A DNA stretch of 64,000 nt from Minisyncoccota bacterium (GCA_041665325.1 JBAYJB010000003.1:1502-65501), one strand, 5' to 3'. Positions 18,302 through 54,974 are shown, counted from the stretch's first letter. The notes: generated by a model from the letters alone, not told the origin. Made by a program: numbers and translations.

Positions 18302-19126
18302 ATGTCAACGGCCGTCACCGTCATCCGCCCCAAGCGGTTATTCCACCTCGCCGACCTCAAGGAACTCTGGAATTACCGGGAGCTTTTGTATTTCTTCAGC
18401 TGGCGGGACCTCAAGGTACGCTACAAGCAGACAGCGATCGGCGTCCTCTGGTCGGTCCTACAGCCCTTCATCACTATGGTGGTGTTCTCGTTCTTCTTCG
18501 GCAAGCTCGTCCAGGTGCCGTCTGACGGAGTGCCCTATCCGATCTTCGTGTACACCGGCCTCCTATTCTGGCAATTCTTTTCCGACTCCTTGAATGAGAC
18601 CAGCAACTGTCTCCTGGCCAACAAAGCCATCGTCACCAAGATATACTTCCCGCGACTGATCCTGCCGATCTCTTCTGTACTGACCAAGCTCGTGGACTTC
18701 GCGATCGCCGCGGTCATCATGATCGGTCTCATGTTCTACTATGGATATGTGCCAAGTTGGGGCGGCCTACTCATGCTGCCGCTCTTACTCGTCCTGACAT
18801 TCATGGCCGCGGTCGGGCTCGGCCTCGTCCTGGCTTCGATCAACGTCAAATATCGCGATGTGCGCTACGCCCTGCCCTTCTTCATCCAGATACTACTCTT
18901 CGTCACGCCGGTCATATATCCGGCATCGCTCGCCGGAAGCTATTCGAAGTTTCTGGCCTTGAACCCGATGATGGGCGTGATCCAGAGCGCCCGCGCGGCT
19001 CTCCTCGGCACTACACCGATCAACTGGACGCTCATCCTGACTTCGGCGATCGGCGGACTCATCCTGCTAGGCATCGGCTTGGTCTACTTCAAGAAAACAG
19101 AGAGGTACTTCGCAGATATCATATAG
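18302..19126 (+). CDS. wzm: ABC-2 type polysaccharide export permease (Wzm/TagG/KpsM family).
   Basis: LWNYRELLYFFSWRDLKVRYKQTAIGVLWSVLQPF is the ABC-2 permease signature. Six TM segments, 274 aa. Confidence 0.85.
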   Translation: MSTAVTVIRPKRLFHLADLKELWNYRELLYFFSWRDLKVRYKQTAIGVLWSVLQPFITMVVFSFFFGKLVQVPSDGVPYPIFVYTGLLFWQFFSDSLNETSNCLLANKAIVTKIYFPRLILPISSVLTKLVDFAIAAVIMIGLMFYYGYVPSWGGLLMLPLLLVLTFMAAVGLGLVLASINVKYRDVRYALPFFIQILLFVTPVIYPASLAGSYSKFLALNPMMGVIQSARAALLGTTPINWTLILTSAIGGLILLGIGLVYFKKTERYFADII

Positions 19127-19164
19127 ACATTATAAACTCACACTGGCGGCAGCAATCTAACATC

Positions 19165-19722
19165 ATGAAGCAGAAAGATAACGGTATGCTAGTGTGGATA
19201 ACGGGATTACCTGGTTCCGGCAAGACAACGCTAGCAAACGCTGTATACAAAAAAATAGGTCTTGTTATCCCAGCCATACATATCGACGGCGATCACTTCC
19301 GGGCGATCATGGGTAATGATCTGGGACACAGCATGAAAGACCGTTTAGAAAACGCCTATCGAATAACACGCCTCAACAAACACCTGACTGATCAAGGTAT
19401 CACGGTCATCTGTTCGACAGTCTCGTTGTTCAGGGAAATACACAGATGGAATAGAAAAAATCACAAAAAACTGATGGAAATATATATCGATACTCCCATG
19501 GATATCCTAATGAGGAGAGACCAAAAAGGGATGTATACCGGTGCAGCAAAGAAACAAGTCAAGAATGTACGTGGCTTCGACCAGGGTTTCGATATGCCGC
19601 AAAAACCCGATATGATCATAAGGAATACGGGCAGTCTAAAGAACTTCTTGCTCCATACTGAGAAGATTGTCAGAACTATAAAAAGAAGGAATATATCTCA
19701 TGAAAAAAAGACCAGAAAATAA
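19165..19722 (+). CDS. Adenylylsulfate-kinase-fold enzyme, CysC-like. In context it is most likely a Cj1415-type cytidine-diphosphoramidate 3'-kinase.
   Basis: P-loop LVWITGLPGSGKTTLA and APS-kinase core (HIDGDHFR...LGHS..DR.EN..R...L..GI.VI.S..S..R..R.......EIYIDTP). 186 aa. Its end overlaps the next gene by 23 nt. Confidence 0.8.
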   Translation: MKQKDNGMLVWITGLPGSGKTTLANAVYKKIGLVIPAIHIDGDHFRAIMGNDLGHSMKDRLENAYRITRLNKHLTDQGITVICSTVSLFREIHRWNRKNHKKLMEIYIDTPMDILMRRDQKGMYTGAAKKQVKNVRGFDQGFDMPQKPDMIIRNTGSLKNFLLHTEKIVRTIKRRNISHEKKTRK

Positions 19723-22069: not shown

Positions 22070-22075
22070 TATATT

Positions 22076-22855
22076 ATGAAAGCTATCATCTTAGCGGCAG
22101 GCATGGGAAAGAGGCTCGGCAAGTATACGGCCAATCTGCCCAAGGGTATGCTCTCATTCCGAGGCGAGACTCTGATAGAGAGGCAGGTCAGAACGCTCCG
22201 CTCCTGCGGGATAAAAGATATCTCCATCGTGACCGGTTACGAGGCCAAGAAGATCACTATCCCGGACGTGAAGTATTATCACAACAAAAGATATGCAGAG
22301 ACGAATATGGTCGAGAGCTTGTTTTGTGCCGAGAAAGAACTAAAAGGAGATGTGCTCATCGCTTATTCAGATATCATTTATGAAGATCGAGTAATCAAAC
22401 AAATGATTGAGAGCCTGGCGGATATCGGAGTTGCTGCCGATGAGGATTATCAGGGATACTGGAAGGCTCGTCTCGACAATGAGACAGACGACTTGGAAAG
22501 TCTGGTTGTAGCAAGCGGCCAAATCATCGAGCTTGGCGTTCCCTGCGGCCCGGATAAGGCCGCACTGCGCTACGTCGGCCTGATCAAGTTGTCTTCCAAG
22601 GGAGTAGCAAATATTAAGGAAGTCTATACGGAGAATAGAAAACGCTTCTTTGATTCGAGCGCTCCCTGGTTGGGATCTAAGTCTTTCAAACAGGGCTATA
22701 TGACGAGCCTGCTTCAAGCTACCATTAACGCAGGTCATGAAGTGAAGCCAGTCGTGATTCGCCGGGGTTGGATGGAATTCGACACTGAAAATGATTATGA
22801 GAGAGCCGAGGTTTGGGCCAATAAAGGCAGCTTGGGGAGATTCATAAAATTATGA
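22076..22855 (+). CDS. Nucleotidyltransferase (LicC/Cj1416-like cytidylyltransferase family).
   Basis: N-terminal MKAIILAAGMGKRLG (GxGxR) nucleotidyltransferase motif. 259 aa. Confidence 0.75.
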   Translation: MKAIILAAGMGKRLGKYTANLPKGMLSFRGETLIERQVRTLRSCGIKDISIVTGYEAKKITIPDVKYYHNKRYAETNMVESLFCAEKELKGDVLIAYSDIIYEDRVIKQMIESLADIGVAADEDYQGYWKARLDNETDDLESLVVASGQIIELGVPCGPDKAALRYVGLIKLSSKGVANIKEVYTENRKRFFDSSAPWLGSKSFKQGYMTSLLQATINAGHEVKPVVIRRGWMEFDTENDYERAEVWANKGSLGRFIKL

Positions 22856-23541
22856 AAAAGAATCAGATCGTTGGCATCACACAAAGAGTCACCGTCAACA
22901 AAAATGGCGTCAGGTGTGACACATTGGAACAGAACTACAGTACCTACTTCTCCGCTCTCGGAGTCACTCTCATACCGATACCGAACGACCTCACGAGTGT
23001 CTCCAGCTTCATCGAGTCGACACATATGAGCAAGCTTATCTTCTCCGGCGGCGGAGATATCGATCCTGATCTTTATGGCGGCAAAAGAAAAGATCCGGCC
23101 TCGTATACTGCCGATAGAGAACGAACCGAGAAAGAGCTATTCGCTTATGCGCAGAAGTCCGATATGCCCGTCCTAGGCATCTGCCGCGGCGCGCAGATGA
23201 TCAATGTGCTCTCCGGAGGAAAGCTCCTAGACCTTCGGGAGACATATGGACCGGTTCACGGGCATGTTAAAACATTCCACGACGTCGAGATAGTAGCTGG
23301 CCTCATAACCGGACTGCCAAAGGGGCCAGCGAAGGTCAACTCCTATCATGACTTTGGTTTCACCAAAAAGGAGCTAGGCCAAGGACTGGTGGCTTTCGCC
23401 AAGGCCAAGGACGGCATTGTCGAAGGCATCGGGAATATAGATAAAAAGATATATGGTATATTATGGCATCCAGAACGCGACGGCATAGACCGAGAAGAGT
23501 TGACCAAGAAGATTATCGAAGCTTTTTTATCCGATACATAA
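22852..23541 (+). CDS. Class I glutamine-amidotransferase-like / peptidase C26 hydrolase (Cj1417-like gamma-glutamyl hydrolase candidate).
   Basis: Catalytic triad motifs PVLGICRGAQMIN and ILWHPERDG. 229 aa. ATGA start/stop overlap with the upstream gene. Confidence 0.75.
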   Translation: MKKNQIVGITQRVTVNKNGVRCDTLEQNYSTYFSALGVTLIPIPNDLTSVSSFIESTHMSKLIFSGGGDIDPDLYGGKRKDPASYTADRERTEKELFAYAQKSDMPVLGICRGAQMINVLSGGKLLDLRETYGPVHGHVKTFHDVEIVAGLITGLPKGPAKVNSYHDFGFTKKELGQGLVAFAKAKDGIVEGIGNIDKKIYGILWHPERDGIDREELTKKIIEAFLSDT

Positions 23542-23551
23542 ATACATCTAT

Positions 23552-24313
23552 ATGAAACAAGGCGACTTTACAACTCTGGCGAAGAACTACATCCACCGCG
23601 CCGGATATTCGCCACTTGTGCTCGAGACTATATATAAGTATGCCGGATTTACTAAAGACACCCTGATCGCCGACGTGGCGGCCGGCACCGGCAAACTTAC
23701 AGAGAACCTCTTGGCCTACCCGAGTAGAAAGCTATTCTGTATCGAACCGAATGATGCCATGAGGGAGGAAGGCGGCAAATATATAAATGATAAAAGAGTC
23801 AGTTGGGCCAAGGGATCGGGCGAAAAGACCGGACTACCGACGGCTTCCATAGACTGGGTGACCGTGGGTTCGGCCTTCCACTGGATGGACTTGGTCGTGA
23901 CCCTGGGAGAATTCCATCGGATCCTCAAGCCCGGCGGCGTCTTCACAGCCATCTGGAATCCTCGCGATATCTCCGGTAGCGAACTACACAGTAAGATCGA
24001 GAAGAAGATCCATGATATGGCGCCTTTTATCGAGAGGAAGTCTTCCGGCTCCGGAAAATACACCGAAGACCTAGACGAGAAGATCGTCAGCACCTCCCAG
24101 TTCCGTGACATCATATATATGGAAGCCAAACATGAAGAAAAGATGAGCAAGGAAAGATATATGGGCATATGGGATTCCGTCAATGACATTCCCGCTCAGA
24201 CCGGACCGGAGCTCTGGGACAAGATCCTCGCCGAGATCAGAGCGATCATCGAGCCCTACGGTGAGATCATTGTGCCCTACAAGACCCGATCCTGGACTGC
24301 ACGAAAAGTGTAA
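23552..24313 (+). CDS. Class I SAM-dependent methyltransferase (Cj1419/Cj1420-like candidate).
   Basis: Motif I IADVAAGTGKLTENL, a motif II/III-like VTVGSAFHWMD, and LKPGGVF. Confidence 0.75.
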   Translation: MKQGDFTTLAKNYIHRAGYSPLVLETIYKYAGFTKDTLIADVAAGTGKLTENLLAYPSRKLFCIEPNDAMREEGGKYINDKRVSWAKGSGEKTGLPTASIDWVTVGSAFHWMDLVVTLGEFHRILKPGGVFTAIWNPRDISGSELHSKIEKKIHDMAPFIERKSSGSGKYTEDLDEKIVSTSQFRDIIYMEAKHEEKMSKERYMGIWDSVNDIPAQTGPELWDKILAEIRAIIEPYGEIIVPYKTRSWTARKV

Positions 24314-24323
24314 GGATAGCAAA

Positions 24324-25859
24324 ATGAATAAGCGCACAGAAATACAACTGGTCGCGTCGCACTTCCCATCTGGTCTATCCTGGCTGAACAACTTCCTCTT
24401 GGAGATCGGCGTGCTCGCCTACAACGGGGACGCGACCTTCGATGGTATGTGGCAACGGATCGGAGATCATACCTTCAGACTGAAGGAGACTGAGGAGCGT
24501 CAGAGGCAATGGCTGCCGGTCCTGAGCAAAAAACTAATCTTCGACTTTCCGGAAGATATCATGGTCAGATGGTCTCACAATCTGCCGATGATAGTCAGAG
24601 AGGAGCAGAAGACGATCTTATTTGTACGAGATGGTAGGGACGCCGTATATTCAGCCTTCAAAAGGGAGGGCCTCTATAGCTCGCTAGAAGCTATGGTCAA
24701 GGCAAGATGTGCCCCCCTGAGTCTCACCCCTCCGGAAACATGGGCGGTGTTCAATCGTCTATGGATAGAGAACGTCACTCCTTCGTGCCTGAGGGTGGTG
24801 AAGTTTGAAGACCTGAAGACAAAGCCATACGAGACCATCAAGGATATACTGGAATTCATCGGAGTAGAGCGTCGAGACGCGGACATTCTATCCGCCATCG
24901 AGTCATCTAGTTTTGAAAATGCAAAAAGAGCCGAGGTCGCGCACAAGGAACATGATCGGAGCACGATTGTGCCGACGATAAACAGAAGTGGTGCGATCTT
25001 CGAGTGGAAGGGGCGATATGACAGTGCCTCGTTATCGACATTCAAGGGGTTCCCTGAAAAGATGCTATCGTACCTCGGATATGAAACCTCCGGCAGCGAC
25101 AATAAGACAAGACCGGATGCAAAATTGCCGGGATATACTTCAGACGAGGAGAAGAAATTCGTCGAAGCGTGGCAAAGATACACGAGGACCTACCGGCAGG
25201 GACGGTGGCAATACGATATCCTCATCAAGATGCGGGAAGTAAGAGCGTGGTCCAAAAATGTGGCCCTCAAACTGCTGAGCATCGAGCTCCTCTCAAGCCT
25301 TATCAAAACAAAAGATCCATATATTAAGTTTACATATAGCCCGAACGGCGAAGACATCCTGATTGGCAACATACTGATGAAGAAAAATTCAAAGACATTC
25401 GATGATATCAACGGGTTGTATGTCAGTATCGATCCTCCCCACCCGCGAAAGTGTTCTTACACCTACTTGTTATATAATCATGGCTGGAGAGGCCTAAACA
25501 TCGTGGATGCTAGTTTATACTCCACATTCAGGAGAGATCGGCCGCACGATAAGAATTTCCTCTCGAACAATGGCGAGGGCAGCGAAAACGGTCGCCAACC
25601 AATAAAAGACCTGCTCTCCAAGAACCTTCCCCGCGAAAGATCCTTGGGTCTCCTTGTTCTCGATCAAGAGAGCAGGAATGGTGAAATGGTAGAGTCAAAT
25701 ATCTGGAGTTTACGGCCGAAGCTTGTGATTGCCAGGGATTCAAGATACTCCCCCGCAAGACCTGATGATTCGGAGCTATATTCTTTCATGAAACGGACCG
25801 GGTACAGCTTGATAGGTTGGATGAACCAGACTATGGCCTTTTTGGACCAGACAAGGTAA
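24324..25859 (+). CDS. Two-domain protein: N-terminal sulfotransferase-fold domain (PAPS-type 5'-PSB and 3'-PB motifs) fused to a C-terminal degenerate FkbM-like methyltransferase-fold domain.
   Basis: N-domain VASHFPSGLSWL (5'-PSB-like) and ILFVRDGRDAVYSAF (3'-PB RDxRD..S.Y). C-domain TYSPNGEDILIGNIL...YTYLLYNHGWRGLNIVDA is homologous to the N-terminus of the FkbM protein at 27152, but the Gly-rich SAM loop is replaced by VSIDPP. Start placed at Met48 of the listed ORF. Confidence 0.65.
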   Translation: MNKRTEIQLVASHFPSGLSWLNNFLLEIGVLAYNGDATFDGMWQRIGDHTFRLKETEERQRQWLPVLSKKLIFDFPEDIMVRWSHNLPMIVREEQKTILFVRDGRDAVYSAFKREGLYSSLEAMVKARCAPLSLTPPETWAVFNRLWIENVTPSCLRVVKFEDLKTKPYETIKDILEFIGVERRDADILSAIESSSFENAKRAEVAHKEHDRSTIVPTINRSGAIFEWKGRYDSASLSTFKGFPEKMLSYLGYETSGSDNKTRPDAKLPGYTSDEEKKFVEAWQRYTRTYRQGRWQYDILIKMREVRAWSKNVALKLLSIELLSSLIKTKDPYIKFTYSPNGEDILIGNILMKKNSKTFDDINGLYVSIDPPHPRKCSYTYLLYNHGWRGLNIVDASLYSTFRRDRPHDKNFLSNNGEGSENGRQPIKDLLSKNLPRERSLGLLVLDQESRNGEMVESNIWSLRPKLVIARDSRYSPARPDDSELYSFMKRTGYSLIGWMNQTMAFLDQTR

Positions 25860-25874: not shown

Positions 25875-27155
25875 ATGAGCAAACCGATAATAGAAGTCAG
25901 GAATATTAGCAAGCGCTACGATATCACACATACGCATGGCGGCTATGTGGCCTTGCGCGATGTCCTGACAACGATCATGCGTCGGCCATTCTCCTTCTTG
26001 GCGCACAAGGCCAAGCGCGCCGTCGGCCTCGAGAAAAAAGAAGAATTCTGGGCGCTCAAAGATGTGAGCTTCGCCGTAAATAGGGGCGAGGTCATCGGGG
26101 TAATCGGCGCGAACGGCGCCGGCAAGTCCACCCTGCTCAAGATACTCTCCCAGATCACGCCGCCCACCGGAGGCGAGGTCATCCTGCGAGGCCGGGTCGG
26201 CTCCCTTCTTGAGGTCGGTACCGGCTTCCATCCAGAATTGACCGGTCGCGAAAATATCTTCTTGAACGGGGCCATCCTCGGCATGAAGAAACAGGAGATC
26301 GCCGCGAAGTTCGATCAGATCGTCGACTTCGCAGGGATCGAAAGATTCTTAGATACACCTGTCAAGCACTATTCGAGCGGTATGTATGTGCGGCTGGCTT
26401 TCTCCGTAGCCGCTCACATGGAGCCGGATATCCTCCTCGTCGACGAAGTCCTAGCTGTAGGTGATGCAGAATTCCAGAAGAAATGCCTCGGTAAGATGGA
26501 CGAGATCACTAGGAATGAAGGCCGAACTATCATCTTCGTGAGCCATAGTCTGAATACGATCCGAGACCTATGCCCAACTACAATCTTGATGAAGGAGGGG
26601 CGTATAGACCTAGTCGGTCCGACCGACGAAGTGATCGACCATTATCAGGAAGAGATCAAGGGGCTGCGCTCTATCGATCTTCGAAATGAAACTAGGAGGC
26701 GTGGCACCGGAGCAATCAAATTGACAGATTTTTATGTCGAAAACTCTGACGGAAGCAAATCAACCATGGTCAAAAGCGGAGAATCCACCACTTTCGTATT
26801 GTCTTATGAGTGCGCAAAACCAGAGAATGTAAAAACTGCTGATGTTGGCATATCTATAAATAGGAACGGGGCACCAATCGCGACTTTTTATAGTTCATAC
26901 GTCAAGAGCTCCTTATCCGACATTGCTACATCTGGACAATTCCGCTTCTCGGCCGAAAATATTCCGCTCGCTGAAGGCACTTACGGCATTGGCGCACGCG
27001 TACTTGCGAATGATGTCGAGGCCGACTGGCCAAAATCAGAAATCGGCCAACTCGAGGTTTCAAATCCGACAGAATTCAAGGAGAAAGGATTTCGCACGGG
27101 GGCGGGCTCAGCAGTCATCATAAATGGCCTTTGGAGTCACATCCCTTCCAAATGA
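25875..27155 (+). CDS. wzt: ABC transporter ATP-binding protein Wzt/TagH-type with a C-terminal carbohydrate-binding (Wzt_C-like) extension.
   Basis: Walker A GVIGANGAGKSTLLKIL, signature YSSGMYVRLAFS, Walker B ILLVDEVLAVGD. A ~150-aa C-terminal beta-rich extension follows. 426 aa. Confidence 0.85.
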   Translation: MSKPIIEVRNISKRYDITHTHGGYVALRDVLTTIMRRPFSFLAHKAKRAVGLEKKEEFWALKDVSFAVNRGEVIGVIGANGAGKSTLLKILSQITPPTGGEVILRGRVGSLLEVGTGFHPELTGRENIFLNGAILGMKKQEIAAKFDQIVDFAGIERFLDTPVKHYSSGMYVRLAFSVAAHMEPDILLVDEVLAVGDAEFQKKCLGKMDEITRNEGRTIIFVSHSLNTIRDLCPTTILMKEGRIDLVGPTDEVIDHYQEEIKGLRSIDLRNETRRRGTGAIKLTDFYVENSDGSKSTMVKSGESTTFVLSYECAKPENVKTADVGISINRNGAPIATFYSSYVKSSLSDIATSGQFRFSAENIPLAEGTYGIGARVLANDVEADWPKSEIGQLEVSNPTEFKEKGFRTGAGSAVIINGLWSHIPSK

Positions 27156-27868
27156 AAAAAACGTTGAAAGCCATGATCCGAGCGTTAGTCAAGCTGATTC
27201 CGCTCGAATTTATTGAGCAGATGATTTCCTTGAAGATGGGCTATCCAACGATCTCGTATGGTCCAAACGGAGAAGACGCCATTTTAAGGAACATGCTCCG
27301 CGGCATAAGCGGCGGCTTCTACATAGATGTTGGCGCATATCATCCCAATAGGTTTTCTAATACACGCACCTTTTACAATGATGGCTGGTCCGGCATAAAT
27401 ATAGATGCGATGCCAGGTAGCATGAAAGCGTTCATGAAAGAGCGCCCCAGAGATATCAACCTCGAATCAGCCGTATCTGACAGGACCGAGACATTGACAT
27501 ATCACGTGTTTGCGGAACAAGCATACAACACCTTCTCTCATGAATTGGCAACGGAGTGTGTAAAGTCAGGGAAAAACAAAATACGCGAGATAAAACTCGA
27601 CACGATGCGGCTTGTAGACATCCTCGATGAGTACATGCCGAAAGACAAAATAATAAATTTGCTTTCGATCGATGTGGAGGGATACGATATGGCGGTTCTC
27701 CGATCAAATGATTGGATAAGGTATCTCCCCGAGGTCATAGCTATAGAAGAAATTGGCTTCGACGTCGAGGCTCCCCAGAAATCAGAGATATTCAACTTCC
27801 TCAAAAGCAAAGGTTACCATCTGGAAGTGGCTATGCCCAAAACGATATTTTTCCGTCTACACAAATGA
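27152..27868 (+). CDS. FkbM-family SAM-dependent methyltransferase.
   Basis: GFYIDVGAYHPNRFSN...GINIDAMPGSMKAF...ESAVSDRTETLTYHV matches the FkbM-family pattern. Start placed at MKKTLKAM, forming an ATGA overlap with the wzt stop. Confidence 0.75.
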   Translation: MKKTLKAMIRALVKLIPLEFIEQMISLKMGYPTISYGPNGEDAILRNMLRGISGGFYIDVGAYHPNRFSNTRTFYNDGWSGINIDAMPGSMKAFMKERPRDINLESAVSDRTETLTYHVFAEQAYNTFSHELATECVKSGKNKIREIKLDTMRLVDILDEYMPKDKIINLLSIDVEGYDMAVLRSNDWIRYLPEVIAIEEIGFDVEAPQKSEIFNFLKSKGYHLEVAMPKTIFFRLHK

Positions 27869-29574
27869 AACCACTTAAGACCCCTATCCTGTTCATTGCC
27901 TTCAATCGTCCAGGACCTACTAAGGATGTTTTTGCGGAGATCCGTAAGGCACGCCCCGAAAAACTCTTCGTGGCAGTCGATGGCCCGAGAAAAGACCGGC
28001 CAGAAGATGTGGACAAAGTAAACAAGGTTCAGGAGATAGTGAGCCAAGTAGACTGGCCATGTGAAGTAAAAAAACTCTTCAGAACAGAGAACCTCGGATG
28101 CAAAATCGGCGCGACTTCGGCTATCACATGGTTCTTCGAACATGTCGAGGAAGGCATCATTGTGGAAGACGACTGTCTGCCGGAACAATCCTTCTTTGCC
28201 TTCTGTTCTGAAATGCTCGAGCATTTCCGCAATGAGCCGAGGGTAGCCATGATCTGCGGGTATAACATAGAGAAGACTTCTGATCTTCCGTATTCCTATA
28301 CCTTCTCACGCTACGGACATCTCTGGGGCTGGGCTTCATGGAAAAGGATCTGGGATCAATACGATGTGACCATGAAAGTTTGGGACAATATTGATAACCG
28401 CAAGAAGATTAGAAAAGCCATGGATGATTATCGGCAATGGAATTATCGCGAGTGGCTATACAATGAGACCTACGAGGGTCGCAAGGATACGTGGGACTAC
28501 CAGTGGGAATCATATCGCCTACTTCATAGTCAGATCTGCGTGATCCCAAATAGGAACATGATCAGAAATCTGGGTTTTGGCGCCGATGCCACTCACACCA
28601 AGCAAACTACTTCGCACCTCGTCATTCCAGGACAAACCATGAAGTTTCCTCTAGCACATAATCCAGACCTGGTAGCCAGTGACTACTATGATCGACTACT
28701 CCGCCCCAAGATCAAAGCCCAAAGCCGACTGCGGAGATCGCTCAAGGATAGAAGCTTTAGACTGGGGAAACTATTGCTCCCGCCATTCATATATCAGTTA
28801 GTCAGGAAGCTCATCCGGGGCACAAAAGTATGGAAGCCTATCTGGAATACCCTTGATTATGAACCGATGGCCGGAGTGAAGATGTTCTTTGACCCTTCCG
28901 GCTCCTGGCAGAGCAAGATGAAGAATGGGTCGTATGATAAGTTCATGTTCGACCGAGTATCCGCCATCGGCGCCGAAGGCAAGGTGATCTACGATATCGG
29001 TGCACATGTCGGATACCATTCCCTCTATTTCGCCCGGCTTGTTGGTAAAAACGGCAAGGTTATCACGATTGAACCTAATAAGAAGAACTTTGAGCGCCTA
29101 AAGAAGAACATAGACGAAAACAAGGATCTGAAAGAAAGGATATCAGCATTTAATATTGCGGTTGGAGACAAGGATGGGAAAGTGGAATTCAACATAAATG
29201 AAGATGTCGAGGGAGGTCGTAGCACTGGCAGCTTCATAGGCACGGCCGACACATTCTCAAGCCGCGAGACATATAAGAATAAGGGGTTCACAAAAACTTC
29301 TGTTGACCTAGTGACTATAGATTCATTTGAGAAGATGCTTAGCATTCACGACGCTCCAGACATCATCAAAATCGACGTTGAGGGCGCCGAGTCATTGGCT
29401 CTCGAGGGCGCCAGGGGAATCTTACTCGCTAAGAAACCGGTGCTTTTTGTCGAGATCCATTCGATGAGAAACATGTCAGATGTCATGAACTTCTTACACT
29501 CGATATCATATGAGGCCAAGATCGCTAATATTGAGGGCAATGGGGTGTGTTATATAGAGGCACACGCTAAGTGA
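27865..29574 (+). CDS. Fusion of a GT-A-fold glycosyltransferase-like domain (EDD motif) with a C-terminal FkbM-family methyltransferase.
   Basis: N-domain ILFIAFNRPGPTKDVF...LFVAVDGPR...GIIVEDDCLP. C-domain VIYDIGAHVGYHSLYFARLVGKNGKVITIEPNKKNFERLKKNI...IIKIDVEGAESLALEGA is classic FkbM. ATGA overlap with the upstream gene. Confidence 0.7.
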   Translation: MKPLKTPILFIAFNRPGPTKDVFAEIRKARPEKLFVAVDGPRKDRPEDVDKVNKVQEIVSQVDWPCEVKKLFRTENLGCKIGATSAITWFFEHVEEGIIVEDDCLPEQSFFAFCSEMLEHFRNEPRVAMICGYNIEKTSDLPYSYTFSRYGHLWGWASWKRIWDQYDVTMKVWDNIDNRKKIRKAMDDYRQWNYREWLYNETYEGRKDTWDYQWESYRLLHSQICVIPNRNMIRNLGFGADATHTKQTTSHLVIPGQTMKFPLAHNPDLVASDYYDRLLRPKIKAQSRLRRSLKDRSFRLGKLLLPPFIYQLVRKLIRGTKVWKPIWNTLDYEPMAGVKMFFDPSGSWQSKMKNGSYDKFMFDRVSAIGAEGKVIYDIGAHVGYHSLYFARLVGKNGKVITIEPNKKNFERLKKNIDENKDLKERISAFNIAVGDKDGKVEFNINEDVEGGRSTGSFIGTADTFSSRETYKNKGFTKTSVDLVTIDSFEKMLSIHDAPDIIKIDVEGAESLALEGARGILLAKKPVLFVEIHSMRNMSDVMNFLHSISYEAKIANIEGNGVCYIEAHAK

Positions 29575-29578: not shown

Positions 29579-30520
29579 ATGAAGATCCACATCATCACTA
29601 TTTTCGACAAGAATCGCCTCGGGAGAGCCCTAGCGTTCAGAGAGTCGCTTGCAAAATATGCTCCCGGTTGCCATGTGCGCTTCCTTTGTCTTGACCAGGA
29701 GGCATACGATATGACCAACCGGCTCAATCTCGACGATACTACCGCTATGCTTCCGGAGGAGCTAGATGACAAGGAACTTCTAGCCACACGTGCTGGACGA
29801 ACCAATCCGGAGTTCGCGTCGACTTGTAAGCCGGCACTGCTCTCCTACATGATGGAGAGTGGCGTCGTCGAACAAAACGACCTCTTGGTCTTCATAGATG
29901 ACGATTTCTTCTTCTATCAACCTCTCCTGCCCCTGTTCGAAAAGATTTATCACTCTGGTTCTATTGCCATAACCCCACACCGCTTCCCTCCTCATCGTGA
30001 ACATGAGACAGCCACCAAGGGCATATACAATGCCGGTATCGTCTTTTTCAAGAATGATCCCGAGGCGCGAAAATGCCTCAAGGAATGGCGCCTGCAGTGT
30101 CTGAAGTGGTGTTACCTGCGCTATGAGAATGGTCAGATAGGCGATCAGGGGTACCTCAGTGATTGGCCTAAGAAGTATAAGGGCGTCTATGAGATTCCGG
30201 ACATTGGCGTCAATCTCGGCACCTGGAATATCAAAAACTACAAGATTACCAGGAACGTCGGTGGAGACCTTATGATTGATGACCAGCCGCTCATCTGTTA
30301 TCACTTCCATGGGCTTAGGTTATATCTAAATAAACAGAATAAGGTACGGGCCTATCCGATCACGGTCTTACATTCAGGGATTTATAAGCCTTGCATAGAA
30401 GCCTTGGAAAAAGCCTATATAGGATTGATGATCGTAGATCCGAAGTGGGTGTATGGAACCATTGCTAGGCCAAGCATGTTGAGGCTTTTGAAACAAGCCA
30501 TCTTGAGGTTGAAATATTAA
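29579..30520 (+). CDS. Putative GT-A-fold glycosyltransferase (nucleotide-diphospho-sugar transferase-like).
   Basis: LVFIDDDFFFYQPL DxD-type motif and Rossmann-like N-terminus. 313 aa. No closer family assignment is possible by eye. Confidence 0.45.
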   Translation: MKIHIITIFDKNRLGRALAFRESLAKYAPGCHVRFLCLDQEAYDMTNRLNLDDTTAMLPEELDDKELLATRAGRTNPEFASTCKPALLSYMMESGVVEQNDLLVFIDDDFFFYQPLLPLFEKIYHSGSIAITPHRFPPHREHETATKGIYNAGIVFFKNDPEARKCLKEWRLQCLKWCYLRYENGQIGDQGYLSDWPKKYKGVYEIPDIGVNLGTWNIKNYKITRNVGGDLMIDDQPLICYHFHGLRLYLNKQNKVRAYPITVLHSGIYKPCIEALEKAYIGLMIVDPKWVYGTIARPSMLRLLKQAILRLKY

Positions 30521-30544: not shown

Positions 30545-33175
30545 ATGCAGAAAATAGTCATAACAGGCGGGCTGGGATATGTAGGTACCGAGCTATGTAA
30601 GCTTTACTCCGGCGAGGCACGCTTCAAGAAGATTGTGGTCGTCGATAATCGATTCTTCTCGTCCCGTGTCACACAGCTCAGAGATTGGGGTATGGAATTC
30701 ATTCATGGCAACATCCTAGACAAGGATCTCATGAAATCCATTCTTGCAGATGCTGACATCGTATACCACTTGGCAGGCATCACGGATGTTTCTTATACCA
30801 AGAATGAATCAAGTGAGGCCAAAGATAGGCTTATAACTGAGGTCGGCGTTACGGGCACGAAGAATATCATCGACTACTCACCGGCAAAGGCTAAAATCAT
30901 CTTCCCTTCAACGCACGTGGTCTATGAAGGATTCGGCAAGACAAAATTCAACATCACTGAAGATGAACTAACAGTGCCGATGCTTTCATATGCTATGGGT
31001 AAGGATCAGTCTGAAAAAGATCTGATGGCATCAAAAAAGAATTATGTGATCCTCCGCTTCGGATCAGTATATGGATACTCGGAATCAGATACCATGCGTA
31101 TCAACATCATGCCGAATCTGTTCTCCAAGATCGCTTCGCAGAACGGCACAATCAGTCTCTTCTCCGGTGGAGTACAGTACAAGAGCCTGGTCTCACTCGT
31201 AGATGCCGTTCGGGGCCTAAAATTCATGGGTGAGTCAAAGATAAACCGCGAGATTTTCCATCTATGCAACGAGAACATGACGGTCAAGGAAGTGGCTGAT
31301 GTATGCAAGAAGATCAATCCATTAGTAAAGATCATTTCGACTAAGGACGAGATACCAAACTTGGGATATACCACATCAAACAAAAAGCTATTGGCTACCG
31401 GCTTCACATTTAAACACAATATTGAGAGTAGTATCGCTGAGATGATAAGCGCCTGGTCAGCCAAGGAGCTGCCGGATGCTCTGGAATATACAGTACGCGG
31501 CGACAAGGAATTCATCGATGCACGCGGCAAGATCAGCAACTATGAGCTGACGGAACCGATAAACTTGATAGGTTACATCGAATCAAAAGCCGGCACAGTC
31601 CGCGCCAATCACTACCACCCAATCCAGGAACAGAAGTGTCTTGTCATCACAGGGTCATACATAAGCGTCATCAAGGACTTGGCTTATCCAGATGCCCTAG
31701 TCGAAACGCGCCTCATCAAAGCTGGAGACATCGCTGTCATCAGGCCCAATGTAGCCCACACCATGGTATTCCTCGAGGATACGGTATTTCTCAACCTAGT
31801 GCGCGGAGAACGCGAGCATGAGAACTACGGAGTGACGCATACGATCCCTTACAAACTTGTCGACGATAAATTTAGAGACGAACTCCTCAAGAATTTCAAA
31901 CCGGAGTGCCGTTCGTGCGGTAAAAAAAACTTGAAGGACGTTGTCACCCTTGGACTTTCTCCACTAGCCAATAATCTATTACCGAACAAAGATACGCATG
32001 CCGAGATGTTCCCTCTCGAAATGAAGTATTGTCCGGATTGCCACAATTGCCAGTTGTCATTTACAGTATCGGCCCACAAACTATTTGATCACTATCTCTA
32101 TGTATCCTCGACAGCCAAAAGCTTTCGCAAGCATTTTGAAGAAGCGGCTGAACAGTATCTGAAGCAATTCAATCTCACCAAGAAGGACCTTGTTGTAGAT
32201 ATCGGCAGCAATGACGGCATTGCGCTCCGCCCTCTCAAGGCCAGAGGCATCAAAGTCCTAGGCATCGAGCCTGCCAAGAATATCGCCGACCTAGCCAACG
32301 CCGAAGGCATCGAGACCGTCAATGACTATTTTAGTAAGGCCGTCGTAGACAAGATCATCAAAGAAAAAGGCAAGGCTACCTTGATCACTGCTTCCAACGT
32401 ATTCGCTCATTCTGACTTCCTCAAGGATATCGCCATAAATGCCATGAAGCTCCTCAAGGACAACGGCCAATTCATCGTTGAGGTCCAATATCTCATGGAT
32501 ACGATTAAGGATCTGACTTTCGACAATATATATCACGAGCATGTGAACTATTGGTCGGTCACTTCGATCAACAACTTCTTTGAATGTTTGGGCTTCAAGG
32601 TCGTTAAGATAGAACATATAGATACTCACGGCGGATCAATCCGTGTCTATGTCAAGAAAGGCGGCAAACCTGACAAGAGCGTCCTTGATTCGCTCAAAGG
32701 CGAAGAGGTCTTCGGACTTAAGGATTACCAGACTTACCTTAAATTCGGACGTGATATCGCAGATTTGAGAGAAGTCGTCAAACGAAATATCGGATTACTA
32801 AAGAAGAACTACAAACACATCGCCGGATATGGGTCTCCAGCCAAAGCCACAACAGCTCTTAACTATTTCGGCATAGACAACACTCATATCGATTACATCA
32901 TCGAAGACAACGAGCTCAAGAACGGCAAAATCGTTCCTGGCGTAATGATCCCGATCAAAAATAAGCAGTACGCATTTACTCATTTACCAGAGGTCATCAT
33001 AGTCATGGCTTGGAACTTTTTCGAGGCAATCAAGAATAACAACGCCGAGTTAACCAATGAGGGCGTGATCTTCATAAACATCAAGGATTTGCAGGATAAG
33101 AATTTTAAAGTGCCAAGAAGTCTCAGGAGAATCACTAAGAATAGGGTTTCTAAGAAAAAGGCTCTAAAGAAATAA
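30545..33175 (+). CDS. Trifunctional nucleotide-sugar tailoring protein: NAD-dependent SDR epimerase/reductase + WxcM/FdtA-like cupin (sugar 3,4-ketoisomerase-type) + TylC3/NovU-type sugar C-methyltransferase.
   Basis: The SDR domain has VITGGLGYVGTELC and YAMGK (YxxxK). The cupin domain has RANHYHPIQEQKCLVITGSYISVI. The C-MT domain has a Zn-ribbon CRSCGKK...CPDCHNC followed by VVDIGSNDGIALRPL, and ends in the C-methyltransferase C-terminal region. 876 aa. Confidence 0.7.
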   Translation: MQKIVITGGLGYVGTELCKLYSGEARFKKIVVVDNRFFSSRVTQLRDWGMEFIHGNILDKDLMKSILADADIVYHLAGITDVSYTKNESSEAKDRLITEVGVTGTKNIIDYSPAKAKIIFPSTHVVYEGFGKTKFNITEDELTVPMLSYAMGKDQSEKDLMASKKNYVILRFGSVYGYSESDTMRINIMPNLFSKIASQNGTISLFSGGVQYKSLVSLVDAVRGLKFMGESKINREIFHLCNENMTVKEVADVCKKINPLVKIISTKDEIPNLGYTTSNKKLLATGFTFKHNIESSIAEMISAWSAKELPDALEYTVRGDKEFIDARGKISNYELTEPINLIGYIESKAGTVRANHYHPIQEQKCLVITGSYISVIKDLAYPDALVETRLIKAGDIAVIRPNVAHTMVFLEDTVFLNLVRGEREHENYGVTHTIPYKLVDDKFRDELLKNFKPECRSCGKKNLKDVVTLGLSPLANNLLPNKDTHAEMFPLEMKYCPDCHNCQLSFTVSAHKLFDHYLYVSSTAKSFRKHFEEAAEQYLKQFNLTKKDLVVDIGSNDGIALRPLKARGIKVLGIEPAKNIADLANAEGIETVNDYFSKAVVDKIIKEKGKATLITASNVFAHSDFLKDIAINAMKLLKDNGQFIVEVQYLMDTIKDLTFDNIYHEHVNYWSVTSINNFFECLGFKVVKIEHIDTHGGSIRVYVKKGGKPDKSVLDSLKGEEVFGLKDYQTYLKFGRDIADLREVVKRNIGLLKKNYKHIAGYGSPAKATTALNYFGIDNTHIDYIIEDNELKNGKIVPGVMIPIKNKQYAFTHLPEVIIVMAWNFFEAIKNNNAELTNEGVIFINIKDLQDKNFKVPRSLRRITKNRVSKKKALKK

Positions 33176-33220: not shown

Positions 33221-34123
33221 CTATTTTACATGACCTTCTAACACAAAACGTCTTTTGACACGGTAATCGTATATACCGATGAATCGACAGACGAGACTGA
33301 GCATCGGGGCAGTGAAATGATCGTATTTTTCCTGACTAAAACGATATATAAGTTTGGTAAGTGTGGAATCCGGATGTGTATCTATATATTTGATAATCTG
33401 GAGGGCCGGCATTGTCTTCATGGGACCGCCAGCAAAGTGGATAAAACTGTTCTTGTGATACATTTCCAATATTTTTGAAAGGCTCCGACCGAAAGCCGTC
33501 CGATAACACGCGGCAATCGTATTAAATCCTGACGGAAGCTCTACCCCCCTCTTATCATTGAGTAGATGATAGGAAAGTGGACCATTCTCCCAACATCTCT
33601 GCTCTGGATAGGTATCATAGACCATTTCAAGCATGGGCTTGATATCTTTGGAGACGATGAATACCCCAGTATTCATGAGAACATCGGGCCGGTTGTTTGC
33701 CGGGCACCCATCGTAAAGTTCTAGATCCGTGCGCTTCAGCCCTTTCAAATTGTAAGGATTGTTTGCAACAATTCCCCACTGCATATCACCTATGAAACTA
33801 AATGGATCAGCGGCATGGCTGGTGATATATACATCAGCATCCACGAATAAGGCCCTGCTATACTTTGCGACTCGCGGATGATCAAATATGAGCAGTTTTT
33901 GCCAAGCAACATGTTTATCTGATCTTCGCAGGGGCTGATCAATAATCACCAGCTCGAAGCCGTTTTTCTCCGCATATCTTTCGAGACTTCCGCAGAAAAG
34001 CTTACGGAATTTTATTGAGAAAGTATCGCCAATCGCAATGGTGACCAGAACTTCACGCTTCCTATCGTCGTGGTGGTCGAGGGTCATAATGTGTGGTAGA
34101 TTAGCATATAATCCAACCATCAT
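33221..34123 (-). CDS. Putative GT-A-fold glycosyltransferase (DxD motif FVDADVY).
   Basis: 300 aa, cytoplasmic, with ...ALFVDADVYITS... The family cannot be resolved by eye. Confidence 0.4.
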   Translation of the reverse strand: MMVGLYANLPHIMTLDHHDDRKREVLVTIAIGDTFSIKFRKLFCGSLERYAEKNGFELVIIDQPLRRSDKHVAWQKLLIFDHPRVAKYSRALFVDADVYITSHAADPFSFIGDMQWGIVANNPYNLKGLKRTDLELYDGCPANNRPDVLMNTGVFIVSKDIKPMLEMVYDTYPEQRCWENGPLSYHLLNDKRGVELPSGFNTIAACYRTAFGRSLSKILEMYHKNSFIHFAGGPMKTMPALQIIKYIDTHPDSTLTKLIYRFSQEKYDHFTAPMLSLVCRFIGIYDYRVKRRFVLEGHVK

Positions 34124-34212: not shown

Positions 34213-35220
34213 ATGCCTGATAATAAAAAAATCCTCGTGACTGGCGGCCTTGGCTTCATCGGAAGTTGTTTTACCGAGATGGCCCTGAAAAGAGGATACG
34301 AAGTCATCAATGTAGACAAGATGACCTATGCTATACGAGAAGATACTGACTTTGAGAAGTACCCAAATTACACTTTCCTCAAGAGAGATATAAATGACCT
34401 TGTGAAAATACCCCCTGAAGTGAGTTGGGTCATTAACTTTGCGGCCGAATCTCATGTAGACAACTCCATCAACGAAGCTGCGCCGTTCTTCCGGAGCAAT
34501 GTCGGCGGTGTATACCACCTGCTACAACTTCTAAAGGCCATGCCAGCGACAAGGAGGCCTACCCTGCTACAAATATCGACTGATGAGGTCTATGGAGATA
34601 TCCTAGAAGGATCATTCTTCGAGACTGACATGCTCAAACCTTCTAGCCCATACTCTGCGAGCAAGGCGGCGGCGGACCAGCTGGTCATGGGCTGGGGACG
34701 GACATACGACATACGCTATCGCATCGCGAGAAGTAGTAATAATTATGGTTATGGCCAGAGAGCTGAGAAGCTGATTCCTAAAGCTATGAAACTGGCTATC
34801 AGAGGTAAAAAGATACCTGTGCACGGTGATGGGTCATATCGCAGGGAATGGACCTTTACTGAAGATAATTGCGAAGGTCTGTTTGCTATCATGGAAAAAG
34901 GCACTGATGGAGAGATTTACAATATTTCAGCCCGGGAGGAATTGACCAACCTGGAGGTGATAAAAAAGGTGCTTGGAGTGATGGGAAGACCGGATGACCT
35001 ATACGAATTCGTAGAGGATCGTCCGGGACAAGACGTGCGCTACTCCATAAACACTGACAAGATTCGTGCACTAGGTTGGAAACCAGCCATGACACTAGAC
35101 CGCTACTTACCAATCTGCAAGAAACTCAATGAGGATAGAACACGTTCTATGCCGCCCGGCAAGAAAGAGCGTCTAGCAAAAATCTTTGGCCTCAAAAATA
35201 TACTTTATCGGAAGTCGTAG
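34213..35220 (+). CDS. rfbB: dTDP-glucose 4,6-dehydratase.
   Basis: ILVTGGLGFIGS...YxxxK (YSASKAAAD) and overall RmlB-type SDR organisation. 335 aa. Confidence 0.85.
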   Translation: MPDNKKILVTGGLGFIGSCFTEMALKRGYEVINVDKMTYAIREDTDFEKYPNYTFLKRDINDLVKIPPEVSWVINFAAESHVDNSINEAAPFFRSNVGGVYHLLQLLKAMPATRRPTLLQISTDEVYGDILEGSFFETDMLKPSSPYSASKAAADQLVMGWGRTYDIRYRIARSSNNYGYGQRAEKLIPKAMKLAIRGKKIPVHGDGSYRREWTFTEDNCEGLFAIMEKGTDGEIYNISAREELTNLEVIKKVLGVMGRPDDLYEFVEDRPGQDVRYSINTDKIRALGWKPAMTLDRYLPICKKLNEDRTRSMPPGKKERLAKIFGLKNILYRKS

Positions 35221-35714
35221 CGCTCCTTCAGTGCCTGGATGATTGGAATATGGATGAGCAGAAGGTCCTCTGGCATCTCTGTCAGAGGAAAGAACTTGGC
35301 GATATCACTCTCCTCGACATTGCCCGGCTTCTCGCAAACAAACATAAGAGTGATGACATCTCCACGGGGGCTTTCGCCGATGCCATTGCCGGGTTGATAT
35401 TGGAACCATCTGTAGAACTCGTAGGGTGTAGATGACGACATACCCATCTCACTCGTGATGACCCTGTCTAAGGTATCCTCGAATTTCTCGTTCGGGAGAT
35501 GGATAGAACCGGGTATGTGCCAACCCTTGAAGAATTCATCCTCCCTATAAGTAAGAAATATCTCACGTACTCCATCATTATTCCTCATGACCGCCAATTC
35601 TGCTGCGATTGTCGGAAAGGCTAGACACCAAGCGGAAAAAACTTCAGGAGGCAATGGGAATGTCACCTTGCCCATAAGCTTGATAAGCTCGTTCTGTTCT
35701 TGAGATGCCAGCAT
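35205..35714 (-). CDS. Hypothetical protein with a degenerate Nudix box. Possible nucleotide-sugar hydrolase.
   Basis: GSIHLPNEKFEDTLDRVITSEMGM partially matches Gx5Ex7REUxEExGU; the two Glu positions are replaced. 169 aa. Confidence 0.35.
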   Translation of the reverse strand: MLASQEQNELIKLMGKVTFPLPPEVFSAWCLAFPTIAAELAVMRNNDGVREIFLTYREDEFFKGWHIPGSIHLPNEKFEDTLDRVITSEMGMSSSTPYEFYRWFQYQPGNGIGESPRGDVITLMFVCEKPGNVEESDIAKFFPLTEMPEDLLLIHIPIIQALKERYDFR

Positions 35715-35754: not shown

Positions 35755-36450
35755 ATGAAAAATCCAATAAGAAAAATGCTAAACAAGGCCGGATTAGACC
35801 TGCGTAGACACCACCCCGAAGCCGACCGCCTGGCCTGGCTGTCGGGCATGAATATCCAGACGGTCTTCGACATCGGCGCCAATATCGGGCAGTTCGCCAC
35901 GGAGATCCGCGCCGCGTTGCCAGATGCACAGATCTACTCCTTCGAGCCACTCGCGGGATGCTACGGTAAGCTCGTCGGTGCATTCAAGGGTGATCAGAAG
36001 TTCCGCGCTTTCAACTATGCGCTCGGGGAAAGAGCGGAGAAGATCGCCATGAATAGGAGCGCTTACACGCCGAGCTCTTCCCTCCTGCCTATGGCCGATT
36101 CGCACAAAGAACTTTTCCCTCACACCAAAGATTCCTTGCCGGAGACCATAGAGGTGCGACGGCTAGACGATGTCTGGGCCGAACTCAAGCCGGTCGGAGA
36201 AGTCCTCATCAAAGCTGACACACAGGGTTACGAAGCCAGAGTCATCGCCGGAGGCCTAGAAGCGTTCAAACAAGCAAGGGCCGTACTCATTGAAGCTTCG
36301 TTTGTAGAACTATACGAAGGCCAACCGCTTTTCGACGACATATATCAGAAGCTCAAAGCTCTCGGTTTTGTCTATAAGGGCGCCTTGCACCAGAAGATCA
36401 ACAATAAAACAGGCGAGGTCATATTCGAGGACGCGATATTTACGCGTTGA
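35755..36450 (+). CDS. FkbM-family methyltransferase.
   Basis: VFDIGANIGQFATE...IYSFEPL...NYALGERAEKIAM...IKADTQGYEARV. A TAGAAT box sits 9 nt upstream of the ATG. Confidence 0.8.
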   Translation: MKNPIRKMLNKAGLDLRRHHPEADRLAWLSGMNIQTVFDIGANIGQFATEIRAALPDAQIYSFEPLAGCYGKLVGAFKGDQKFRAFNYALGERAEKIAMNRSAYTPSSSLLPMADSHKELFPHTKDSLPETIEVRRLDDVWAELKPVGEVLIKADTQGYEARVIAGGLEAFKQARAVLIEASFVELYEGQPLFDDIYQKLKALGFVYKGALHQKINNKTGEVIFEDAIFTR

Positions 36451-54902: not shown

Positions 54903-54935
54903 AGAAGATGCTATTTCAGGACAATTATATCATAG

Positions 54936-54974
54936 ATAAAAAGAGACCCACCTTGTCCTGTGACTTGGTGGGCC
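54936..54974 (-). terminator. Rho-independent terminator (minus strand) downstream of the hypothetical gene 55024..55443.
   Basis: Minus strand reads GGCCCACCaagtcacaggacaaGGTGGGTCtcTTTTTATCT. Confidence 0.55.

Follow-up and report, generated by a model that had tools for sequence, protein, structure and literature searches.

A conserved fusion of SDR, cupin and C-methyltransferase modules predicted to tailor a branched deoxysugar in a Minisyncoccota glycan locus

The open reading frame (ORF) at positions 30,545 to 33,175 of a 64,000-nucleotide stretch from a Minisyncoccota bacterium (GCA_041665325.1 JBAYJB010000003.1:1502-65501; the whole stretch is hereafter called the window) encodes a single polypeptide of 876 residues, in which an N-terminal short-chain dehydrogenase/reductase (SDR) is followed by a small cupin and a TylC3-type C-methyltransferase. 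We propose that this enzyme carries out the methylation, epimerisation and 4-keto reduction of a nucleoside diphosphate (NDP)-linked 4-keto-6-deoxyhexose, and would thereby unite the last three steps towards a branched deoxysugar on one polypeptide, a reading to which we give a probability of about 55%.

Architecture of the fused enzyme

The fusion begins 25 nucleotides past the stop codon of the preceding gene, and its parts were delimited as follows:

30545–33175, plus strand: complete tri-domain fusion ORF, ATG start, 876 residues, end coordinate including the stop codon
30545–31462, plus strand: extended SDR module, residues 1–306, with the NAD motif GGLGYVG, D34, S122/T123, Y149 and K153
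31484–31864, plus strand: small cupin module, residues about 314–440, with the metal motif H356, H358, E362 and H405
31907–32086, plus strand: Cys4 zinc subdomain of the methyltransferase, residues 455–514 (C455, C458, C496 and C499; PF08421)
32138–32608, plus strand: class I S-adenosylmethionine (SAM)-binding Rossmann domain, residues 532–688 (PF13489), including H622, Y663, E665 and H666
32624–33076, plus strand: C-terminal (NDP-sugar binding) domain of the C-methyltransferase, residues 694–844 (PF08484)
33080–33172, plus strand: basic C-terminal tail, residues 846–876, not conserved among homologs

Profile and structure matches agreed with an initial annotation of this DNA, which had proposed one 876-residue polypeptide carrying an SDR, a cupin and a TylC3-type C-methyltransferase in this order. 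The structure model of the whole fusion was confident, with a predicted local distance difference test (pLDDT) score of 84. The Lys/Arg-rich tail was modelled as a low-confidence helix (pLDDT <50 for residues 862–876) and is missing from most homologs, which stop at about 850 residues. An identical protein is on record from a metagenome-assembled genome (MAG) of a 'Candidatus Paceibacterota bacterium' (P0001). Residue conservation was scored across 59 homologs, the set to which statements on invariant residues refer.

As judged from its profile matches (PF08421, E 3e-14; PF13489, E 4.5e-16; PF08484, E 3.1e-37), the region of residues 455–844 is a complete C-methyltransferase of the TylC3/TcaB9/MtmC type, as had been anticipated for the C-terminal part, and activity at C3 is predicted by homology. 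Matches in the PDB included MtmC (4rv9, E 7.5e-68) and TcaB9 (E 7e-53), and Foldseek gave template modelling (TM) scores of 0.89–0.91 to MtmC, KijD1 and TcaB9. Residues Y76, H181, Y222, E224 and H225 of TcaB9 align to Y517, H622, Y663, E665 and H666 of the fusion, all of which were found to be invariant; C455/C458/C496/C499 are likewise conserved and align to the zinc cysteines C15/C18/C56/C59 of the TcaB9 chain. The initial annotation had taken this Cys4 site for a zinc ribbon linking the cupin to the methyltransferase. The four cysteines exist, but they form the N-terminal zinc subdomain (PF08421) intrinsic to TylC3/TcaB9 enzymes, and the idea of a fusion-specific linker was rejected.

The SDR module matched PF01370 (E 8.6e-21), and its best relative in the PDB was Cj1427 (6vo6/6vo8; E 7e-23 over residues 2–305, 84 bits, about 30% identity), with the next-best match at an E value of at least 1.6e-11. 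Cj1427 was also the best structural match in Foldseek (target-normalised TM score 0.86) and was followed by 4-epimerases, decarboxylases and dehydratases, the top neighbours by sequence and by structure all being NAD-retaining, C4-oxidising enzymes. The catalytic set S122/T123, Y149 and K153 is invariant, as is Asp34 in 'VVDN' at the end of the second beta strand. An Asp at this kind of position is typical of NAD-binding SDRs, and the module is therefore judged to be of the NAD(H) type. Two other assignments were considered and rejected. As a 4,6-dehydratase (RmlB/GMD) the module lacks the T-D-E or S-D-K pair, having P-S-T-H-V-V-Y (STHVVY), and reached just 50 bits on TIGR01181 against a cut-off of 365 bits; as an RmlD-type reductase it scored 37 bits on TIGR01214 against a cut-off of 224 bits, and RmlD itself was matched in the PDB at E 1.6e-4. 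A match to PF04321 is the generic cross-hit usual for extended SDRs. The label 'reductase/epimerase' first given to this module therefore holds as far as the SDR family is concerned, whereas its reductase part is suggested by context, since the nearest characterised enzyme is a C4-dehydrogenase and not any known 4-ketoreductase.

Searched alone, the cupin module gave weak matches to PF14667 (E 0.0026; 18.3 bits, cut-off 28.7), to Cupin_2 (E 0.0045) and to CapF in the PDB (E 0.17). An exhaustive search of 1.8 billion proteins found 412 representatives of its family, and a profile built from 44 members had the CapF cupin as its best single-domain match in the PDB (E 7e-12), followed by an RmlC-like protein of S. 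tokodaii (5e-9), QdtA (2e-6) and FdtA (1.3e-5). PF14667 was matched by 39 of the 44 relatives (best E 4.7e-12); PF05523, the FdtA family, was matched by 10 of them and not by the query. The domain-only AlphaFold model is an 11-strand barrel (pLDDT 87), for which Foldseek returned QdtA/FdtA first (E about 1e-7, TM score 0.61–0.68, root-mean-square deviation about 7 Å), with RmlC-type epimerases, ChmJ and EvaD just below and CapF absent from the top 50. Cupin motif 1 contains an HxH pair (H356/H358), which together with E362 and H405 makes up the canonical metal motif, and all four residues are invariant or at least 99% conserved, from which motif a four-ligand metal site is predicted. The domain is thus a member of the small sugar-nucleotide cupins, FdtA-like by fold and closest to the CapF epimerase cupin by sequence profile. 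The description as an FdtA/WxcM-like cupin was accordingly borne out at the level of fold and contradicted at the level of the family profile, the ketoisomerase profile PF05523 not recognising the query.

Distribution, permutations and gene neighbourhoods

Full-length relatives of the fusion were found in at least 120 clusters at 90% identity (848–912 residues, 63–78% identity, 97–100% coverage), and relatives turned up in 313 genomes when the species representatives of GTDB were scanned. Among the best 80 of these 313, most were Pelagibacteraceae (SAR11; 55–59% identity), with Patescibacteria, Peribacteria, Absconditabacterales and a complete Pseudothioglobus genome also represented. Complete genomes with the fusion include those of Pelagibacter sp. 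Uisw_137 (NZ_CP159811) and Pseudothioglobus (NZ_CP179200). Archaeal MAGs assigned to Methanobacterium (63% identity) and Nanoarchaeota (55%) carry the fusion too, with MAG binning error possible for both. A relative is furthermore encoded on 68 contigs classed as viral by IMG/VR (L088–L155 in our numbering of loci), 46 of them in full length, and the fusion is present with 68% identity in LR756502.1 (L002), an 'uncultured phage' genome of 642,428 bp. This record matches the 642-kb complete, manually curated huge phage of Al-Shayeb et al. (PMC7162821). In it, the fusion lies within a large glycan-biosynthesis cluster (441068–463671) that also encodes GT2, GT6, three GT11 and GT17 glycosyltransferases (GTs), DegT aminotransferases, a UDP-glucose dehydrogenase and further SDRs. 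Another 660-kb contig rich in small unknown ORFs (L001) may be a phage as well. Outside the syntenic sister locus L004, the nearest relatives of the window copy are phage-borne. Far from being a rarity, the fusion is widespread.

This distribution confirms that the 876-residue fusion is a real single ORF. The chance that separate genes were joined by frameshift or misassembly, which the initial annotation had named as the outcome that would overturn it, or that the ORF is a decaying remnant, is negligible, since the protein occurs in full length in so many independent clusters, species genomes and viral contigs, including a curated complete phage genome, an ORF of 876 codons is far beyond chance, the catalytic residues are all invariant and the full-length model is confident.

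The same modules also occur in other combinations. The window copy has the order SDR–cupin–methyltransferase (type A). In type C, a separate orthologous SDR of 307 residues, 45% identical to the fusion SDR module over its full length, overlaps the next gene and is followed by a cupin–methyltransferase di-fusion, and in type D an SDR–cupin di-fusion is followed by a separate methyltransferase. Type B enzymes carry a different, 4,6-dehydratase-like SDR fused to the cupin and methyltransferase, with a GFO/IDH/MocA oxidoreductase encoded 6 bp downstream; the type B fusion P0136 has a TSDK motif and scored 169 bits on TIGR01181. Two type B examples (L084, 10001–13546, and L085, 3649–7209) are 876–881 residues long with a divergent GT17 gene upstream, and their surroundings contain genes for B12-binding radical-SAM proteins as well as another pair of an SDR and an RmlC-FdtA-like protein. 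In some relatives a GT17 or FkbM domain is added to make a tetra-fusion. SDR, cupin and methyltransferase are thus one functional unit, found in all these split and fused permutations. In Absconditabacterales and Peribacteria loci (L008, L011), the fusion is split into several ORFs under translation table 11; the fragmentation in Absconditabacterales is probably only apparent, UGA being a sense codon in these bacteria.

The commonest neighbour of the fusion is a GT17-family glycosyltransferase gene, present in 49 of 84 cellular loci; it is adjacent in 43 of these and divergent from the fusion in 40 of those 43. It holds the same position in type B loci. In many SAR11 genomes (L012–L083; e.g. 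L035, 9046–12538) GT17 and fusion form a tight divergent pair in at least two insertion contexts, among housekeeping genes for Lon, ClpX, MsrA, HhH-GPD and a phosphoribosyltransferase.

True RfbB-like 4,6-dehydratase genes were searched for within 8–10 kb of the fusion by TIGR01181 bit score together with the active-site motif STDEVYG. Thirteen loci first grouped as 'RfbB-like' proved to hold assorted SDRs, and re-scoring left four cellular loci (the window, L004, L067 and L068) and two viral ones (L133 and L136). The RfbB-like gene of the SAR11 loci L067/L068 does not belong to an rmlABCD operon: its neighbours are housekeeping genes and a GT2 gene, and no RmlA, RmlC or RmlD was found among those scanned, so that it can be called an orphan. 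A tblastn search of phages with RfbB did not have LR756502.1 among the matches listed (60 rows, with 176 further records beyond them), which is not decisive for that phage. Fusions linked to RfbB are 79–88% identical to those of GT17-only cassettes, for which reason the two should share one function.

In the window, the immediate neighbours of the fusion are:

29579–30520, plus strand: upstream gene of 313 residues, candidate glycosyltransferase (DDD stretch, by eye only)
33221–34123, minus strand: downstream gene of 300 residues between the fusion and the RfbB-like gene, candidate glycosyltransferase (DAD stretch, by eye only)
34213–35220, plus strand: RfbB-like NDP-glucose 4,6-dehydratase (TIGR01181 332 bits, cut-off 365; STDEVYG motif)
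35205–35714, minus strand: NUDIX hydrolase beside the dehydratase (PF00293, E 5.7e-6)

The RfbB-like gene begins 1,038 nucleotides beyond the stop codon of the fusion. The rfbB linkage originally reported is therefore accurate for this locus, but does not hold as a general rule, the usual partner being GT17. The two genes flanking the fusion gave no match to Pfam, NCBIfam, the PDB or a GT17 hidden Markov model (HMM), and both are kept beside the fusion in the syntenic locus L004; as the window is without GT17, they are candidates for glycosyltransferases of a new family acting on the branched sugar. The NUDIX hydrolase possibly controls the sugar-nucleotide pool.

Proposed pathway and alternatives

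In the pathway we favour, the RfbB-like 4,6-dehydratase would make an NDP-4-keto-6-deoxyhexose, probably linked to deoxythymidine diphosphate (dTDP). The TylC3/TcaB9-type module would then deprotonate the carbon alpha to the C4 keto function and add the methyl group of SAM, using H666, E665, Y663, H622 and Y517, with methylation expected at C3 by homology with all structurally characterised members. In a second step the metal-site cupin (H356, H358, E362 and H405) would epimerise the remaining acidic centre, most likely C5, via an enolate, and in a third the N-terminal SDR (S122/T123, Y149 and K153) would reduce the C4 keto group, giving an NDP-6-deoxy-3-C-methyl-hexose. A dedicated glycosyltransferase would pass this sugar on, GT17 in most genomes and another candidate in the window, where the sugar would enter a glycan exported by a Wzm/Wzt ATP-binding cassette (ABC) transporter. 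Of all this, the ORF, its three folds, the conserved catalytic residues, the conserved and permuted architecture and the gene neighbourhoods are observed. We infer which substrate and nucleotide are used, in what order the reactions run, the regiochemistry (C3 or C5) and stereochemistry, in which direction the SDR works and whether a metal is needed.

Several observations speak for this pathway. The RfbB-like gene and the fusion are the sole sugar-nucleotide tailoring genes in the 64 kb, where no gene for RmlA, RmlC, RmlD or an aminotransferase was found; this leaves the dehydratase product without any other visible consumer or reductase, and the RfbB-like gene is here the likely source of the 4-keto-6-deoxy substrate. 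The SAR11 loci L067/L068 independently show an RfbB-like gene paired with the fusion, and such a gene lies near the fusion in the viral loci L133 and L136 too. Type B, with its dehydratase, cupin, methyltransferase and reductase candidate, matches the four proposed steps. It is established that in L-mycarose, L-epivancosamine and L-nogalose biosynthesis a C-methyltransferase, an epimerase and a 4-ketoreductase work on the product of a 4,6-dehydratase. The proposed virenose pathway uses the same logic as well (PMC3539893). The C-methyl-branched sugar put forward in the initial annotation is a sensible predicted product.

Other observations weigh against it. The closest characterised relative of the SDR, as judged from sequence, is the C4-dehydrogenase Cj1427, RmlD being matched with 37 bits, and no 4-ketoreductase was among the Foldseek top 50 for this module. 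The cupin with its metal site is unlike the metal-free RmlC/EvaD 5-epimerases of the classical pathways. A true 4,6-dehydratase was found in just 6 of about 150 loci, 69 of the 84 cellular loci have no other SDR nearby, and the common SAR11 arrangement is a two-gene cassette of GT17 and fusion among housekeeping genes. No gene for an RmlA-type nucleotidyltransferase that would provide the substrate was found in the 64-kb window.

The main rival reading, possible but less likely, is that the enzyme is a self-contained, redox-neutral synthase. Here, the SDR with tightly held NAD(H) would oxidise C4 of an ordinary NDP-hexose and later re-reduce it, the cupin and methyltransferase acting in between; this would yield an NDP-3-C-methyl-hexose with the 6-hydroxyl group still in place, and GT17 and the fusion would form a complete two-gene cassette. 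Such self-sufficiency would explain why more than 90% of the loci are without a local dehydratase and why the two genes form tight divergent pairs among SAR11 housekeeping genes. No other protein comes near Cj1427 as a relative of the SDR (7e-23 against at least 1.6e-11; TM score 0.86), D34 is invariant and of the NAD type, and Cj1427, an NAD-dependent GDP-heptose C4-dehydrogenase of C. jejuni, frees its 4-keto sugar while NADH stays tightly bound (PMC10680097). The same epimerases of C. jejuni can be fed either by a C4-dehydrogenase or by a C4,6-dehydratase (PMC10680097), which mirrors the type A and type B fusions, and type B requires an extra oxidoreductase gene where type A cassettes do without one. 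On the other hand, this alternative gives no reason why the window, L004, L067/L068, L133 and L136 should have an RfbB-like gene beside the fusion, and the scanned neighbours in L067/L068 include no other consumer of the RfbB product; the fusions linked to RfbB are, moreover, 79–88% identical to the GT17-only ones. Since RmlB is very common, a distal copy is plausible where none lies nearby. We also know of no precedent for a transient 4-keto sugar that is C-methylated in another domain and then returned.

A broader form of the same idea, which we regard as doubtful, is that GT17 and the fusion constitute a self-sufficient, horizontally mobile two-gene cassette in huge phages, SAR11, Patescibacteria and archaeal MAGs, in which the SDR, with its NAD(H) retained, transiently oxidises an ordinary NDP-hexose. 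The cupin and methyltransferase would epimerise and C-methylate the keto intermediate, the SDR would re-reduce it and GT17 would install the sugar on a surface glycan; phages may in this way remodel the surface of their host, e.g. to exclude superinfecting phages.

Also to be considered is a noviose-like route, in which the methyltransferase would act at C5, the cupin would be a C3-epimerase and the SDR would reduce C4, to give a 5-C-methyl-6-deoxyhexose. NovU, from the same methyltransferase family, methylates C5, and NovW/NovU/NovS provide the same three activities; CapF, the best sequence relative of the cupin, is a C3-epimerase. A C3-epimerase would make sense only if C3 remains unmethylated, since methylation at C3 is expected to run via a planar enolate. 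As all structurally characterised relatives (MtmC, TcaB9 and KijD1) are C3-methyltransferases and the TcaB9 residues are conserved, this route appears unlikely.

It is very unlikely, finally, that the cupin is an FdtA/WxcM-type 3,4-ketoisomerase whose 3-keto sugar is C-methylated at a neighbouring carbon and then reduced. QdtA/FdtA are its nearest solved folds (Foldseek E about 1e-7, TM score 0.61–0.68), with FdtA H49N and H51N mutant structures among the matches and an HxH pair that may correspond to that of FdtA, and the GFO/IDH/MocA family, to which the type B oxidoreductase belongs, includes sugar 3-ketoreductases. However, PF05523 was matched by 10 of the 44 relatives and not by the query, RmlC-like epimerases were nearly as good in the fold search, and the profile prefers CapF and RmlC-like proteins over FdtA. 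FdtA is metal-free, so that a full His/His/Glu/His set would be an addition. Methylation at C3 would, in addition, be hard to reconcile with a 3,4-ketoisomerase, since a 3-keto sugar would lack the C4-keto/C3-H arrangement that a TylC3-type enzyme needs and 3,4-isomerisation would be impossible once C3 has been methylated.

The glycan locus of the window and comparison with known systems

The locus around the fusion (about 16–53 kb) is an ABC-transporter-dependent glycan cluster encoding Wzm, Wzt with a Wzt_C domain, a Wzy_C/TPR protein, three FkbM methyltransferases and GT1, GT2 and PMT_2 proteins. The exporter and FkbM genes (18302–19126, 25875–27155, 27131–29574 and 35755–36450; the Wzt carries a C-terminal carbohydrate-binding domain, and one FkbM methyltransferase is the C-terminal half of a 620-residue protein) follow the pattern of O-polysaccharide systems with an exporter-recognised cap at the chain end. 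Between about 22 and 36 kb the guanine-cytosine content is low, 44–49% compared with 55–59% in the flanks, over a stretch spanning phosphoramidate-like genes, Wzt, FkbM genes, the fusion and the RfbB-like gene; this suggests horizontal acquisition, in keeping with the phage-borne closest relatives of the fusion. The minus strand at 53061–57121, downstream of the glycan locus, encodes a TrwB/DUF87-type ATPase together with a putative glycosyl hydrolase of the DUF4015 type. The pair is also found near the fusion in L003, with which L005 looks syntenic by ORF layout, and hints at conserved synteny among Patescibacteria.

A run of genes on the plus strand (18757–25856) encodes the same four enzyme classes as Cj1415–Cj1418 of C. 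jejuni (the first four entries), followed by a methyltransferase and a sulfotransferase-domain protein:

about 19.15–19.72 kb, plus strand: adenosine phosphosulfate (APS) kinase-like domain
19700–22069, plus strand: phosphoenolpyruvate (PEP)-utiliser protein of 789 residues (NF004508/PRK05849, 963 bits), NF004508 presumably being the Cj1418 family
22076–22855, plus strand: MobA-like nucleoside triphosphate (NTP) transferase
22852–23541, plus strand: Peptidase_C26/GATase protein
23552–24313, plus strand: class I methyltransferase
24183–25859, plus strand: sulfotransferase-domain protein

Together, Cj1415–Cj1418 make CDP-phosphoramidate-3'-phosphate, the donor for O-methyl phosphoramidate (MeOPN) (PMC11800397). 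One may speculate that the sulfotransferase-domain protein is the transferase for a donor resembling 3'-phosphoadenosine 5'-phosphosulfate (PAPS), and it would be notable, if real, for a Paceibacterota genome to encode a MeOPN-like modification system.

What is known of C-methyl-branched sugars comes mainly from antibiotics of actinomycetes and from a few lipopolysaccharides. If the proposed function is correct, a single conserved polypeptide would make such a sugar in hundreds of species, among them SAR11, which no other marine bacteria exceed in abundance, Patescibacteria and archaeal MAGs, and also in the largest phages known, and would offer a testable handle on the surface-glycan chemistry of organisms whose envelopes are almost unstudied. 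A bearing on the interplay of phage and host would follow from the window copy having its nearest relatives, outside its own syntenic group, in phages. The fusion would also be a compact tool for obtaining branched sugar nucleotides, and would test whether an SDR of the transient-oxidation kind can serve two partner domains.

Among known systems, TylC3/TylK/TylC2, EvaC/EvaD/EvaE and SnogG2/SnogF with their partners, of the mycarose, epivancosamine and nogalose pathways, combine the same three chemistries and include the same methyltransferase family. They differ in being separate proteins of actinomycete antibiotic clusters, with metal-free RmlC-type epimerases of about 200 residues, RmlD-like reductases and mostly 2-deoxy or 3-amino substrates, whereas the fusion is set in loci for cell-surface glycans, in SAR11 and Patescibacteria as well as in archaeal MAGs and phages. 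MtmC, TcaB9 and KijD1 share with the methyltransferase module the three-part fold of zinc subdomain, SAM domain and C-terminal domain, and all TcaB9 residues probed by mutagenesis are kept; in contrast to the fusion, they are stand-alone antibiotic-pathway enzymes of about 410 residues that act on dTDP-linked 2,6-dideoxy or 3-amino sugars, and their identity to it is just 28–32%. FdtA, QdtA and WlaRA-RB, the 3,4-ketoisomerases, resemble the cupin in size (about 135–145 residues) and possibly in the HxH pair of cupin motif 1 and were its top fold matches, but the fusion cupin has a complete four-ligand metal motif and no match to PF05523.

With respect to the sugar, there is a likeness to virenose (6-deoxy-3-C-methyl-gulose), a 6-deoxy-3-C-methylhexose in a cell-surface polysaccharide, the lipopolysaccharide of Coxiella burnetii, for which a route via a dehydratase, a TylCIII-type C3-methyltransferase and an epimerase/4-ketoreductase was proposed (PMC3539893). 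That route, an in silico proposal only, differs in having separate enzymes, a GDP- or dTDP-linked substrate and a single GMER-type SDR without a cupin (PMC3539893). CapF/WbjC (S. aureus Cap5F; PDB 2zkl, 3st7 and 4yrd) has an N-terminal SDR with a small cupin joined to its C-terminal side, and this bifunctional protein serves as both C3-epimerase and C4-reductase for a 4-keto-6-deoxy sugar nucleotide (PMC3699295). In the fusion the cupin follows the SDR (residues 1–306) directly, as in CapF, PF14667 is common to CapF and most relatives of the fusion cupin, and SDR–cupin di-fusions of 450–463 residues occur; CapF is, however, without a methyltransferase, and its SDR is not detectably closer to the fusion SDR than a generic SDR, being absent from the PDB match lists. 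Cj1427, finally, acts on the C4 position of a sugar nucleotide and passes its product to a cupin epimerase, but it is an oxidase that stands alone and is recycled with alpha-ketoglutarate, its pathway being completed by separate reductases that depend on NADPH (PMC10680097).

Public annotation pipelines label the fusion generically, and no paper describing a fused SDR–cupin–methyltransferase architecture was found in the open-access literature. Against the background of known families, every module is known, while the fusion of a Cj1427-like SDR with a metal-motif cupin and a C-methyltransferase, paired with GT17, appears to be new.

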